The notes beneath the pieces were generated by a model. The model did no database searches. It worked only from the letters and a program-made list of their open reading frames with translations, and was not told where the DNA came from. Of a DNA stretch of 64,000 nucleotides, positions 45,489 to 64,000 are shown one piece after another. The DNA is from a virus. Lineage: Duplodnaviria > Heunggongvirae > Uroviricota > Caudoviricetes. The translations under genes and the position numbers were made by a program. The first letter of the stretch is position 1. Each line of letters opens with the position of its first letter. The stretch is from the IMG/VR virus record IMGVR_UViG_3300037418_002962, positions 26,650 to 90,649 of that record. One strand, 5' to 3'.

Positions 45489-46339
45489 TGGCTAAGGGTT
45501 CATCACAATATTTTCTAAACTTTCCAATACTTAATTATAATGGATTTGCAGCTACTAATATTCTTGCAAGATCAGTGATTGCTAAGAAATTTATGGAGAA
45601 TACAGAATTATTCTATGAATATACTGTAAAGGATGGTGAGACTGCAGAGGGAGTTGCTTTCAATGCCTATGGTAATTCTTCCTATGTTTGGGTTTTGAGA
45701 TTATTCAATAATAATATCGATCCATATTATTCCTGGCCTTTATCTCAGGAAGAATTTGGTAATATGATAACAGATAAGTATGGATCATGGGAAATAGCTG
45801 CACAACAAATACAGTATTACCAGAATAATTGGGCAGGGGATGATAGAGTATTGAATCTAAATGGATATGATTCATTGCCAGACTATTTGAAGAAATATTG
45901 GAAACCAGTTATTCGTGCTGGTAACTATGTCTATCAATACAAAAGAAATCCATTAGATACAACTGTATCGACTAACCAGATCCTTCAAATTCCTGTTGCA
46001 AATTCTGGCAGTTTCATAGATAATGAGAAAGTTTCTCAAAATTCTGCCACAGGATTTGTTGCATTTTCTAATTCATCCATGCTAACGTTACAGCATATAA
46101 CAGGAGCTTTCAATAATACCGATATTATTACTGGAAATACTTCTGGAGTCAATGCAAGTCCTTCTGGAAGCATTAACCAGACCTTTGTAATTCCGAATGA
46201 TGAGGCAGTATATTATAATCCTGTCACTGTTCTTGATGTTGAGATGGAAAATAATCAAGTTAGAGCAAATATTAAGATTTTACGAAATGAATATTTACAA
46301 TCAGTTGTACAATCATTCGCTACGGAAATGCAATCATGA
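45488..46339 (+). CDS. gp53: Baseplate wedge gp53
   Basis: YF.NFP, YTVKDGETAE.VAF.AYG..W...NN.IDPYY.WPLS. Confidence 0.9.
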   Translation: MAKGSSQYFLNFPILNYNGFAATNILARSVIAKKFMENTELFYEYTVKDGETAEGVAFNAYGNSSYVWVLRLFNNNIDPYYSWPLSQEEFGNMITDKYGSWEIAAQQIQYYQNNWAGDDRVLNLNGYDSLPDYLKKYWKPVIRAGNYVYQYKRNPLDTTVSTNQILQIPVANSGSFIDNEKVSQNSATGFVAFSNSSMLTLQHITGAFNNTDIITGNTSGVNASPSGSINQTFVIPNDEAVYYNPVTVLDVEMENNQVRANIKILRNEYLQSVVQSFATEMQS

Positions 46340-47019
46340 TAAAATTTAAAGAATTAATAGAAGATTTAGGAAATCCAATTTATAATCCTAATGAACAAAA
46401 TTATGACAAATATACTCCAAAAAAATACAAACCACAATATGTTAATAATATCAGATTACATAAAAAACCAGAATTAACTCCTGATGAAAAAAATAGTATT
46501 GATCATTATACCAAGGCAGGATACGTTAATATGAATAAATTTCATAGAGGGGAAGAATTACATGATTTTGGTCCTGCACCTATGTGGGCAGAACATTCTG
46601 ATTTGGATAAAATAGAAGAGAGATCAGCACATCTTGATTCTGCAATAGCGAAGCATACTACCAATGTTCCTATCCATGTCTGGAGAGGAATTGATGACGA
46701 TGCAGTAAAGAAATTAAAACTTGGAAAAAATAAAATAATTCATGATCCTGGATATGTATCTACTTCGGTATCTCAAAATATAGCCTCAACAAGCTTTAAA
46801 AATCCAGTGCGAGACCAGCATCATATTATGAGCATTAGAGTCCCTAAAGGAAGTAAAGCAGTATATATGAATCAGCATAGCAAAAGAAATGTAGATGAAC
46901 ATGAAGTTCTGTTACCAAGAGGAAGTAAGTTTAGATATTCTCATACAACAGAGCATACTCATAAGTATGGCTATCCTGTCTTTGTCCATCACCTAGAACA
47001 TATTCCAGAGAAATCATGA
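46336..47019 (+). CDS. ADP-ribosyltransferase paralog 1 (R-S-E, VIP2/Alt-like)
   Basis: HVWRG, GYVSTS, EHEVLLPRG. Confidence 0.93.
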   Translation: MIKFKELIEDLGNPIYNPNEQNYDKYTPKKYKPQYVNNIRLHKKPELTPDEKNSIDHYTKAGYVNMNKFHRGEELHDFGPAPMWAEHSDLDKIEERSAHLDSAIAKHTTNVPIHVWRGIDDDAVKKLKLGKNKIIHDPGYVSTSVSQNIASTSFKNPVRDQHHIMSIRVPKGSKAVYMNQHSKRNVDEHEVLLPRGSKFRYSHTTEHTHKYGYPVFVHHLEHIPEKS

Positions 47020-47672
47020 AATCATTCAAGCAACTAATCGAATCCTCAGAAGAATCTCCACAAGTATGGGAAGGAATTCATGATCCTAATAAATCATATT
47101 TCAGGCCAGCAAAAAAAGAATTTACAAATTCATCTTTCCTGAGTTCAGAGGAACAAGCGCATGTCCATAATTATTCTGATTCAGGCCATAACAATATTAA
47201 CAAATATCACAGATTTCCCGGTTCGATTAAAATAGAGCCTGTTATTAAATCGATAGAAAGGCATACTAAGCATATAGATTCAGCAATTTCTAAAAGTACT
47301 GCCAAGAATCATATGCATCTCTGGAGAGGAACAGAGGAAGATGTTGTTAAGGATCTGAAACCAGGAGATACTTTCCATGATAATGGCTATGTTTCTACTT
47401 CCATGTCTCCACAAGTTTCATGGGGATTTGCAGGATATCATAATAAAGAAATTCATCTAATGCATATCAAGACTCCAAAAGGGTCTAAGGTACTGGACCT
47501 AGAACATCATGGAGCTACTGCCAATAAAGGAGAAAACGAATTTCTTTTGCCAAGGGGTTCTAAGTTCCGTTATGATGGAAAGACATCCAAGAAAGGCAAA
47601 ATTCCTGATGGCAGTACTTATATGCAGCATGTTCATCACTTAACTTACCTAGGCCAGCATGAAGACGTTTAA
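47016..47672 (+). CDS. ADP-ribosyltransferase paralog 2
   Basis: HLWRG, GYVSTS, ENEFLLPRG. Confidence 0.93.
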   Translation: MKSFKQLIESSEESPQVWEGIHDPNKSYFRPAKKEFTNSSFLSSEEQAHVHNYSDSGHNNINKYHRFPGSIKIEPVIKSIERHTKHIDSAISKSTAKNHMHLWRGTEEDVVKDLKPGDTFHDNGYVSTSMSPQVSWGFAGYHNKEIHLMHIKTPKGSKVLDLEHHGATANKGENEFLLPRGSKFRYDGKTSKKGKIPDGSTYMQHVHHLTYLGQHEDV

Positions 47673-62410: not shown

Positions 62411-63029
62411 ATTCAAGGAACTGACTGAGAAATATATTGGTAATGCTACAGAAAAAAACAAAAAGGATCTTGAAGTTCCTTTACACCCTGTAAATCATTT
62501 AGATATTTCTGAATATGAAAAGAAAGCTCTTAGAGGTTATGTTGATTGTTGTAATATTAACTTTCATCATAGAGGAACACTTCCTCAAGGAACTGAAAAA
62601 CAATCTGAACATATGATTGCAGATTATAAGAAAAGAGCCAAGGAACATTCAGATTTTGCCACACCACATCTAGATAATTTGCTTAGAAAACATAAAATTG
62701 AGCATGATGTTCATTTATGGAGAGGAATTTCCTTTGAACCACAATATAAAAAAGGAGATATTTTCCATGACAAAGGATATACCTCTACTTCAACACATCC
62801 TGGAAAAGCAGATTCGTTTGGTTTAGGAGATCATTTATTTCATATTAAAGTGCCTAAAGGTTCTAATGCAATTGATGTTAATTCTATTCTTGGTAAACAT
62901 CCAAGAGACTATGAAAAAGAAGTATTACTTCCCAGAAATTCCAAGTTCCGTTATAATGGTTTAAAGACAAACAATATTGGACAGAAAATTCATCACTTAA
63001 CTTATATAGGTATTCATGAAGACACTTAA
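62403..63029 (+). CDS. ADP-ribosyltransferase paralog 17
   Basis: HLWRG, GYTSTS, EKEVLLPRN. Confidence 0.93.
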   Translation: MIKFKELTEKYIGNATEKNKKDLEVPLHPVNHLDISEYEKKALRGYVDCCNINFHHRGTLPQGTEKQSEHMIADYKKRAKEHSDFATPHLDNLLRKHKIEHDVHLWRGISFEPQYKKGDIFHDKGYTSTSTHPGKADSFGLGDHLFHIKVPKGSNAIDVNSILGKHPRDYEKEVLLPRNSKFRYNGLKTNNIGQKIHHLTYIGIHEDT

Positions 63030-63735
63030 ACAATTGCTTGAAGAAAGTAAAGAAAAATGGCTAGGAACTTCTAACCCTCATGATAAACGATATTATTATG
63101 ATGTAAGAAAGCAACAATTTGGCAACCCATTTCCAGAATTGGATAATGAAGCATCTTCATTGCATCCCCAGAAAAATATTCTATCGGATGATGAACAAAA
63201 ACATGTTGGGAAGTATCAGGTAGGCTATACTCCAAACCATGCATTAAGAACCGATAATACTGAAGCGATAAAAAATTATCATCAGCCTCAGATAGATCAT
63301 CTTGACTCTGCAATGCATAAACATGCTTTACAAAATAATATCCATGCCTGGAGAGGAATTTCTTCAAATAAATCTGCAAGTGAAGTTTTAGATAACCTTA
63401 AACCTGGAGATACCTTCCATGATAAAGGATATACCAGTACTTCATTAAATCCTCATATTTCAAAGGATTTCGGATCACAGAATAAAAATCTAATTCATAT
63501 CAAAGTTCCTAAAGGTTCTCATGGCCTTTATTTAAATCATATTTTAGGAAATAGTGTTCTTCCAGAACAGCATGAATTAGTTCTTCCAAGAAATTCCAAG
63601 TTCCGTTATGAAGGTAAAGAAGAAAATAATGGATGGACCATTCATCATGTTACTCATCTTGGGAGTGATTCTCCAAAGCCTTTACCAAAATGGACAGATG
63701 AGGATGAAAAAGTATATCAGGAGTTACATAAATGA
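63016..63735 (+). CDS. ADP-ribosyltransferase paralog 18 (QxE variant)
   Basis: HAWRG, GYTSTS, QHELVLPRN. Confidence 0.92.
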   Translation: MKTLKQLLEESKEKWLGTSNPHDKRYYYDVRKQQFGNPFPELDNEASSLHPQKNILSDDEQKHVGKYQVGYTPNHALRTDNTEAIKNYHQPQIDHLDSAMHKHALQNNIHAWRGISSNKSASEVLDNLKPGDTFHDKGYTSTSLNPHISKDFGSQNKNLIHIKVPKGSHGLYLNHILGNSVLPEQHELVLPRNSKFRYEGKEENNGWTIHHVTHLGSDSPKPLPKWTDEDEKVYQELHK

Positions 63736-64000
63736 AATCGTTTAAGCAACTAACAGAAATAATTGAAGTGCCTATGAAACGGGCAACTTCTCTTCCAGAT
63801 CTTGACCAACATTATAAGGATATACAAAGTGCTGCAGAGAAAATTCATGATAAACCTAAATTAACCTCAGATGAATTTGACCATGTTTACAATTATTCAA
63901 AATATAATTTTAGAGGAATTAACAGACACTTAAGAGATCATGAACATGATTTTAACACCTATTCGGAAATTCCTCATATAGATTCTGCAATTGCTAAACA
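63732..64000 (+). CDS. ADP-ribosyltransferase paralog 19 (truncated by the window end)
   Basis: MKSFKQLTE..., INRHLR, PHIDSAIAK shared with the family. Confidence 0.85.
   Translation, partial: MKSFKQLTEIIEVPMKRATSLPDLDQHYKDIQSAAEKIHDKPKLTSDEFDHVYNYSKYNFRGINRHLRDHEHDFNTYSEIPHIDSAIAK

Follow-up and report, generated by a model that had tools for sequence, protein, structure and literature searches.

The array and its genomic setting

We analysed a stretch of 64,000 nucleotides (nt), referred to here as the window, which comprises bases 26650-90649 of the 243,684-bp IMG/VR record IMGVR_UViG_3300037418_002962 (genome coordinates below, some with the prefix C1, refer to this record). The source is an uncultured T4-like soil phage, and the completeness estimate of the record is 97%. 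Between window positions 46336 and 64000 lie 18 complete open reading frames (ORFs) of 202-280 amino acids (aa), all on the plus strand, whose products are predicted to be ADP-ribosyltransferases (ARTs), and a 19th is cut at the window end. They form blocks of 3, 2, 8 and 6 genes that separate the genes for gp53, the baseplate hub and gp5. Both the number of ORFs and the block arrangement had been proposed in a preliminary description of this DNA; the number was confirmed, the 19th ORF being complete (212 aa) in the genome, and PHROG calls for the flanking genes confirmed the blocks. For three ORFs (53371, 61679, 62403) the start was re-chosen in order to place a conserved leader, described below, at the N-terminus. 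The genes are listed with window coordinates and with E values for the Pfam family PF03496.

46336-47019, plus strand, ART 1: 227 aa; leader MIKFKELIE; E 4.9e-24
47016-47672, plus strand, ART 2: 218 aa; leader MKSFKQLIE; E 1.3e-20
47659-48342, plus strand, ART 3: 227 aa; leader MKTFKELVE; E 5e-21
49726-50346, plus strand, ART 4: 206 aa; E 4.6e-22
50343-50951, plus strand, ART 5: 202 aa; E 6.5e-21
53371-54060, plus strand, ART 6: 229 aa from the ATG at 53371, leader there; E 3.5e-18
54054-54896, plus strand, ART 7: 280 aa, long N-terminal insert; E 3.7e-8, 33.4 bits
54896-55627, plus strand, ART 8: 243 aa; E 7.2e-19
55630-56436, plus strand, ART 9: 268 aa, TTG start; leader without L-x-E; E 4.7e-19
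56423-57139, plus strand, ART 10: 238 aa; leader MKRLKEFIAE (FIAE as in T4 IPII/III); E 6e-20
57126-57857, plus strand, ART 11: 243 aa; E 6.9e-15
57850-58599, plus strand, ART 12: 249 aa; leader without L-x-E; E 3.9e-22
58651-59316, plus strand, ART 13: 221 aa; the modelled copy; E 9.4e-29
60247-60933, plus strand, ART 14: 228 aa; E 3.8e-27
60961-61692, plus strand, ART 15: 243 aa; E 1.6e-22
61679-62410, plus strand, ART 16: 243 aa from the ATG at 61679; E 1.9e-18
62403-63029, plus strand, ART 17: 208 aa from the ATG at 62403; E 6.5e-18
63016-63735, plus strand, ART 18: 239 aa; the sole QxE variant; E 1.4e-22
63732-64000 (cut), plus strand, ART 19: complete, with 212 aa, at genome C1:90381-91019

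The virion genes upstream of these blocks and between them are the following:

44031-45488, plus strand, gp48-like baseplate tail tube cap, upstream of the array; phrog_230, E 2e-33
45488-46339, plus strand, gp53-like baseplate wedge subunit; phrog_232, E 4e-30
50951-52198, plus strand, gp27-like baseplate hub/tail protein; phrog_350, E 1.7e-61
59306-60250, plus strand, gp5-like baseplate hub/spike; phrog_430, E 2e-76

The hub homologue of the Sinorhizobium phage phiM12 carries a gp27-like annotation; for the gp5-like protein, no lysozyme-domain match was seen in the PHROG and Pfam searches. Beyond the window the pattern continues. The gene order in the genome is gp48-like, gp53-like, three ARTs, an Acb1 homologue, a homing endonuclease gene (minus strand), two ARTs and the hub; then a second homing endonuclease gene (minus strand), eight ARTs, the gp5-like gene, six ARTs and gp25; then three ARTs, an unknown protein of 600 aa, a 504-aa LRV/HEAT protein and a third homing endonuclease gene; then gp6 and four ARTs, followed further on by gp13, gp14, one ART, gp15, one ART and TerS. 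By PHROG and Pfam calls, all 28 ARTs of the genome share the orientation of the late virion genes and are wedged between them from gp48 through TerS. Judged by its hub (24% identity), phiM12 is one of the closest relatives in culture; there, the genes for gp53, the hub and gp5 lie directly side by side, and the ARTs are therefore insertions into a conserved backbone. A single-protein search of IMG/VR for relatives of the hub returned none.

Six junctions of the array (ART1/2, ART3/Acb1, Acb1/homing endonuclease, ART5/hub, ART8/9 and ART13/gp5) are bridged by contigs of three other soil and rhizosphere studies, which match the array with zero or few differences. These contigs are short and of low depth, and joints of 85% likeness stem from other ART-bearing phages or from repeats. 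Because independent contigs bridge six junctions, we conclude that the array is not an assembly artefact.

The array genes are predicted R-S-E clan ADP-ribosyltransferases

The only domain family matched in the ARTs was PF03496 (ADPrib_exo_Tox, which covers VIP2, C3, iota and Alt of the R-S-E clade; gathering cut-off 23.4 bits), apart from weaker and overlapping matches to the related ART family PF01129. All 18 complete window ORFs scored above the cut-off (33-101 bits, E 4e-8 to 9e-29), and the cut ART 19 reached 19.6 bits over its first 89 residues. Genome-wide, the PF03496 search gave 28 matches above the cut-off. A hidden Markov model (HMM) built from the 18 window ARTs and run against all ORFs of the genome retrieved exactly 28 members in the same 28 places, with nothing weaker beyond them even at E = 10. 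In the alignment the catalytic arginine, the S-T-S/T motif and the final glutamate of ExE are present in 28 of 28 copies (R103, S135, T136 and E188 being invariant), with ExE in 27 and QxE in one, and every copy is an open frame with intact catalytic residues.

A profile search of the PDB placed VIP2 at the top (E 1e-21), followed by iota Ia, CdtA, C3larvin, Certhrax and C3. One copy, ART 13, was modelled with AlphaFold2 and gave a predicted local distance difference test score (pLDDT) of 80.8 and a predicted TM score (pTM) of 0.79. When this model was searched with Foldseek, C3bot1, Plx2A, Certhrax, VIP2 and CDTa were returned at probability 1.0, and TM scores for C3bot1, Plx2A, VIP2 and CDTa were 0.6-0.72; for the bacterial toxins C3, VIP2, iota Ia and CDTa the E values were about 1e-13 at a sequence identity of about 20-27%. 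Its best viral fold matches were fusions of the MuF/head-morphogenesis-ART type. The preliminary description had read three R-S-E motifs in each of the 18 complete ORFs, and PF03496 together with the motif alignment bears this out for all 28 genome copies; the checks of the ART fold that it had suggested, by HMM (all copies) and by Foldseek (the ART 13 model), likewise came out in its favour. Judged from sequence and model, the array genes encode mono-ADP-ribosyltransferases of the R-S-E clan and of the C3/VIP2 type, with predicted activity. The ExE motif in 27 of the 28 copies suggests, though it does not prove, that the targets are mostly arginine.

Every ART carries a leader that resembles a capsid-targeting sequence

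The N-termini of all 28 ARTs are variants of MK(S/T)FK(E/Q)L(L/I)E. In T4 (AF158101), the internal proteins (IPs) start with very similar leaders, MKTFKEF in IPI and MKTYQEFIAE in IPII and IPIII. The first 10 residues of T4 IPIII suffice for head targeting; residues 4 and 7 of the T4 leader serve targeting, whereas residues 8 and 10 serve processing by gp21, which cleaves after the glutamate in an L/I-x-E context (PMC9026906). In the ART leaders position 4 is F, L or Y and position 7 is L, Y, I, F or M. A position-specific scoring matrix (PSSM) of 26 ART leaders gave these leaders scores of 12.7-23, as against a mean of -19 (standard deviation 6.9) for 1,653 other Met starts in the genome. Applied to 1,326 T4 starts, this matrix, trained solely on ART leaders of the studied genome, ranked IPI 2nd and IPIII and IPII 7th and 8th. 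A triplet [LIVM]-x-E ending at residue 8-11 was found in 26 of 28 ARTs, compared with 47 of 278 other ORFs (17%).

The codons behind the leader vary: Lys2 is AAA in 11 and AAG in 9 cases, Phe4 is TTT in 11 and TTC in 9, and leucine and serine are written with many codons. Because synonymous codons vary at these positions, the leader is conserved as a peptide, and conservation at the nucleotide level, as an artefact of coupling or of the ribosome-binding site, was rejected on the same ground. In the ART 13 model the leader appears as a low-confidence helix detached from the fold. Also encoded are a gp21-type prohead protease (genome 138938-139588; Peptidase_S77, E 3.7e-36) and a homologue of the T4_CASP scaffold (E 2e-29), each with an LxE in its N-terminal part. 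On this evidence the ART leader appears to be equivalent to the T4 capsid-targeting sequence (CTS). With such a conserved leader, the ARTs are probably cargo that is packaged in the head and injected, and not simply generic enzymes of host takeover.

As a side result of the T4 scan, the top match of the matrix, above IPI, was gp61.1 (54 aa, MKTFKEFIKED; AF158101 18966-19130, minus strand), an uncharacterised protein that may be an overlooked bearer of a CTS.

The ART repertoire in comparison with other viruses

In the same PF03496 search, T4 gave one match (Alt), while KVP40, Bacillus phage G, phiM12 and Cr30 gave none. Across 21,191 viral proteomes surveyed in the literature, the high counts named are those of Bacillus phage G ("at least 10 ARTs") and of Bodo saltans virus, with 12 (PMC9503650, section 3.3.1); because phage G has zero PF03496 matches, its ARTs belong to other families. 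A megablast search with the array found no match in 50,697 phage records, and by tblastn the nearest relatives in cultured phages were only about 30-31% identical, with one copy per genome. In the literature we found no published description of tagged ART arrays, and a Microbiome 2024 paper on jumbo-phage NAD+ is silent about ART copy numbers. With 28 copies, as against none or one in the five reference phages and published maxima of at least 10 and 12, the expansion lies far beyond the T4-like norm, as had been supposed from the window, and exceeds that of any described virus.

An old gene family with conserved cores and divergent loops

Pairwise identity among the 28 ARTs is 26-49% (median 36%), and neighbours are no closer to each other than distant copies (36.5% versus 35.9%). 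In a maximum-likelihood tree the 28 do not form one clade but are interleaved with orthologues from uncultured phages, with at least 8 label changes; several have strongly supported partners in other phages (for example, the ART at genome 92162 pairs with P0098 at 100/100 and that at 81545 with P0099 at 99/99), a few form sister pairs within the genome, and the median tip branch is 1.16 substitutions per site. Among 1.84 billion cluster representatives, at least 26 proteins from outside this genome were found that are likewise built of the leader, the ART core and a tail resembling HHLTHIPE. In L123, a 13.5-kb contig of a relative, the backbone between gp48 and gp7 is the same but holds only 4 intact ARTs and 1 decayed copy, where the studied genome has 26. 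The decayed copy (L123:2768-3201) consists of a 44-aa ORF with intact leader followed by a frameshifted C-terminal ART half and is direct evidence of gene death in the family. Two further T4-like fragments carry tagged ARTs around portal, gp21, scaffold and major capsid protein (L043) and around gp14, gp15, TerS and TerL (L082). A recent burst of tandem duplication was rejected in view of the identities of 26-49% and of a tree with orthologues elsewhere. From the low identities, the interleaved tree, the orthologues and the L123 pseudogene we conclude that the ARTs are an old multigene family, which has been maintained while its members turn over by birth and death and which is especially large in this genome.

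Conservation is unevenly spread along the proteins. The catalytic segments are 53-79% identical and constant in length, whereas identity falls to 15-20%, with lengths from 9 to 25 residues, in the regions of the PN (phosphate-nicotinamide) loop, the ARTT (ADP-ribosylating toxin turn-turn) loop and the loop after the catalytic arginine. Identity is 43% in the leader and only 8-14% in residues 11-37. The preliminary description had held that cores are intact while loops and N-termini diverge; core and loops behave in this way, but for the N-termini the statement holds only for residues 11-37 and fails for the conserved leader of 9-10 residues.

Three further features of the family were observed. 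Right behind the leader, at residues ~11-22, all 28 ARTs have a motif (E/K)W(L/I)GT that is specific to the ARTs. At the other end, a C-terminal tail HHL(T/E)H(I/L)PE or HLGxHEE is conserved; its codons overlap the ribosome-binding site of the next gene, and its I-P-E fits the L/I-x-E pattern of gp21. Finally, the metagenomic representatives P0001-P0010 are single chains of 2,100-4,300 aa with 6-11 ART domains each, many with R, STS and ExE intact, and from their sequences these giants appear to be a polyvalent route to multi-ART delivery.

The leader is also found on unrelated proteins in and near the array

Three genes within the array of the window do not encode ARTs, namely an Acb1 homologue and two homing endonuclease genes on the minus strand; the preliminary description had made no mention of them. 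Acb1 is directed against CBASS, the cyclic-oligonucleotide-based antiphage signalling system. These genes, and two others in the ART/baseplate region downstream, are:

48352-48843, plus strand, Acb1 anti-CBASS 2H-phosphodiesterase homologue; PF23474, E 1.5e-30
48840-49499, minus strand, homing endonuclease gene 1; phrog_314/7168/5123
52253-53047, minus strand, homing endonuclease gene 2; phrog_7168/2081
genome C1:95448-96962 = L111:5448-6962, plus strand, LRV/HEAT-repeat protein, 504 aa; top-scoring leader MKSFSQLLEA, PSSM score 17.3
genome 96959-97669, minus strand, homing endonuclease gene 3

The Acb1 homologue starts with MKTFKHFIAE (PSSM score 10.1), and its L123 orthologue (3941-4432) retains the tag as KRFKLFISE; T4 Acb1 (gp57B) starts with MMEFKDFST, which is just faintly similar to the leader. 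The tag is likewise retained, as MKSYKELLEE, in the L123 orthologue of the LRV/HEAT protein (6869-8281), and this protein is probably further head cargo. Since the tag is present on the unrelated folds of Acb1 and the LRV/HEAT protein and is kept in their L123 orthologues, it is portable. A pre-packaged anti-CBASS nuclease, if true, would be new.

Two ORFs at L043:11405-12672 bear the leader (VINFKQFLTEK and VITFKQFIIEA), have no Pfam or ART-HMM match and may represent other cargo families under the same tag. Upstream of the second homing endonuclease gene, a 300-nt gap (window 53048-53360) contains repeated GATCGGCCAAA-like words.

NAD+ salvage genes accompany the ARTs

The window also contains a module for NAD+ salvage, and a NADAR gene lies elsewhere in the genome:

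3058-4473, plus strand, NAMPT; PF04095 and PF18127
4473-5657, plus strand, NMNAT-Nudix fusion; PF01467 and PF00293
6201-6629, plus strand, second Nudix protein, beside the NAMPT/NMNAT-Nudix module
genome C1:154378-155007 = L117:1378-2007, minus strand, NADAR-domain protein; E 1.8e-23; no leader

NAMPT and NMNAT form the nicotinamide-to-NAD+ route that is called NARP2 in phage work (bioRxiv 10.1101/2024.02.11.579819; PMC13464706). The module found here is KVP40/NARP2-like and stands in a genome with 28 predicted NAD+-consuming enzymes; the NAMPT/NMNAT pair could resupply the ART substrate by recycling the nicotinamide by-product. The preliminary description had seen neither an ADP-ribosylglycohydrolase nor a macrodomain in the window, and domain searches for Macro and ARH were indeed empty there and throughout the genome. 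The NADAR protein is a possible ADP-ribose-reversing enzyme and the sole candidate for this role in the genome.

Independently of these genes, ARAGORN called a 95-nt tRNA with undetermined anticodon (window 1052-1146) and an 89-nt tRNA-Cys (window 36052-36140). Both are over the usual length and may hold introns or be mis-calls.

A model of ARTs as head-packaged cargo and its alternatives

We propose the following course of events. The ART genes would be co-transcribed with the surrounding late virion genes, and the leader MK(S/T)FK(E/Q)L(L/I)E would dock each ART into the scaffolding core of the prohead. The gp21-type protease would then cut after L/I-x-E at residues 8-11 and free the mature ART within the head. 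Upon the next infection the ARTs would exit the head together with the DNA, and each would use host NAD+ to modify its own target, mostly on arginine, via its copy-specific PN and ARTT loops, so that host functions or defences would be disabled ahead of phage gene expression. The tagged Acb1 homologue and the LRV/HEAT protein would travel along as additional cargo, and the phage NAMPT and NMNAT would turn the nicotinamide by-product back to NAD+. Because each ART starts with a T4-type head-loading tag, the phage probably injects a large enzyme cocktail, and we hold head packaging, gp21 processing and co-injection to be the likeliest mechanism, with a good though not an overwhelming probability. 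About 44% of phage ARTs sit in contexts that suggest packaging (PMC9503650).

Several points weigh against this model. Late expression, packaging, cleavage, injection, targets and role are all inferred from the genes. The genome shows no enrichment of TATAAATA, the consensus of T4 late promoters, with 19 and 26 occurrences against ~33 expected per strand; it precedes none of the ART blocks, save for CATAAATA before block 3, and is uninformative on timing. As a consequence, it is gene position and orientation only that point to late transcription. Two ARTs (window 55630 and 57850) have no L-x-E in the leader, and the ART-specific WLGT motif just past it is unexplained. At least 28 cargo species would need to share the space of one head, which raises a question of capacity. 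Finally, because the hub is only about 24% identical to that of any cultured phage, the phage is very distant from T4 and the transfer of the CTS rules to it is an extrapolation.

A wider version of the packaging model can be framed in which the portable 10-residue tag is a general cargo-loading system and the head a pre-loaded syringe for dozens of effectors. Its contents would be 28 target-specialised ARTs, the anti-CBASS nuclease, the repeat protein and the products of other tagged ORFs that are still untyped. As the DNA enters, every ART would put a different host factor or defence system out of action, and from phage to phage the repertoire would change through the birth and death of genes. 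We put this forward tentatively, as a possibility with rather less than an even chance.

The ARTs might instead be active only in the producing cell, like T4 ModA and ModB, and never be packaged, the N-terminus being a helix of the family or a feature of translation initiation. Such a reading draws on the genes-only basis of packaging, on the missing enrichment of TATAAATA, and on the occurrence of the leader within one paralogous family, for which common descent predicts some conservation. However, the leader also stands on the unrelated folds of Acb1 and the LRV/HEAT protein and is kept in their L123 orthologues, and its matrix retrieves validated T4 CTS proteins from the whole T4 genome. 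The peptide is conserved in spite of free synonymous change, whereas the following 25 residues are 8-14% identical; a gp21-type cleavage site lies behind it in 26 of 28 copies, and the ART genes are found in virion-gene operons, outside early regions. We therefore judge purely cytoplasmic action unlikely.

A different doubt concerns the target step only and leaves the proposed delivery untouched. Some R-S-E members, such as pierisin and scabin, modify DNA bases. Many of the ARTs could be NAD+ glycohydrolases or could ADP-ribosylate nucleic acids or small molecules rather than arginine, and the NADAR protein of the genome, whose family is linked to reversal of base ADP-ribosylation, as well as the extreme diversity of the target-selecting loops would fit this. 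However, the nearest relatives by sequence and fold (VIP2, iota, C3, Certhrax) modify proteins, and ExE is typical for arginine-specific enzymes, which makes this alternative improbable.

We give hardly any credence to the idea that single ART genes from many strains were wrongly assembled into an array, or that the copies are functionless duplicates in decay: the sequence does come from a metagenome assembly and an ART pseudogene is present in one relative, but 26-49% identity is too low for strain variants, six junctions are bridged by independent runs with zero or few differences, frames, catalytic residues and leaders are intact in 28 of 28 copies, and several ARTs have well-supported orthologues in other phages.

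Relation to known systems

T4 Alt, the sole PF03496 match of T4, belongs to the same catalytic superfamily, and the "Alt-like" phrog_802 matches the ART core here. Alt is packaged in the head, processed by gp21 and injected, a life history like the one we propose for the ARTs, and its gene lies near baseplate genes, beside genes 48 and 54. In contrast, Alt is one protein of ~680 aa with its own 7-residue propeptide (PMC9026906), whereas here 28 proteins of 200-280 aa bear an IP-type leader. Orthology with Alt was rejected, as the ARTs have 202-280 aa and phrog_802 aligns only at profile positions 386-590 of 674, its C-terminal ART part.

The T4 proteins IPI, IPII and IPIII have a nearly identical N-terminal tag followed by an L/I-x-E site, and they are diverse cargo united only by this tag (PMC3012670). 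The neighbourhood is also the same, since ipI adjoins 57B (Acb1) and lies within a few genes of 53 and 5. However, the T4 IPs are three small, basic, non-enzymatic proteins, of which IPI* inhibits a restriction enzyme, whereas here the tag is found on 28 ARTs and a phosphodiesterase. With the toxins C3, VIP2, iota Ia and CDTa the ARTs share the fold and the triad of catalytic motifs, and in size they are near the single-domain C3; unlike the bacterial R-S-E toxins they have no secretion signal or binary-toxin adaptor, and delivery would be by the phage head in place of secretion or a pore.

ART domains as head cargo, as proposed here, are also known from MuF/head-morphogenesis-ART fusions and polyvalent proteins (Iyer et al., PMC9503650). 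The ARTs of the array differ from these in being separate ORFs with their own starts and their own short tag, without fusion to MuF or portal, and separately tagged ARTs would be the modular counterpart of a single polyvalent chain. Large viral genomes with multiple ART genes are also those of Bacillus phage G (at least 10) and Bodo saltans virus (12) (PMC9503650), but here 28 stem from a single subfamily, while phage G has no PF03496 match. Taken by its sequence, the array would combine and expand the ideas of T4 Alt and of T4 capsid targeting; delivery is well motivated, if unproven.

T4 injects one ART and has three small tagged proteins, and the phage studied here appears to merge both ideas and to enlarge them about tenfold. 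If this is true, 28 ARTs set a new upper bound for viral ART repertoires, in comparison with at least 10 and 12, and the T4 capsid-targeting signal is conserved in very distant T4-like phages, where it serves enzymes, among them an anti-CBASS nuclease. A large NAD+-consuming arsenal would be tied to a salvage module for NAD+ in the same phage. The array would also offer a natural panel of at least 28 small ARTs, with intact cores and divergent loops, for the mapping of targets and defences. Since phage-injected proteins act before phage gene expression, they are prime candidates for action against host defences that fire immediately. Should the more tentative view of the head as a pre-loaded syringe hold as well, no virus would be known to inject a larger set of effectors, and the phage would be a new source both of programmable protein delivery and of ARTs whose specificities are new.

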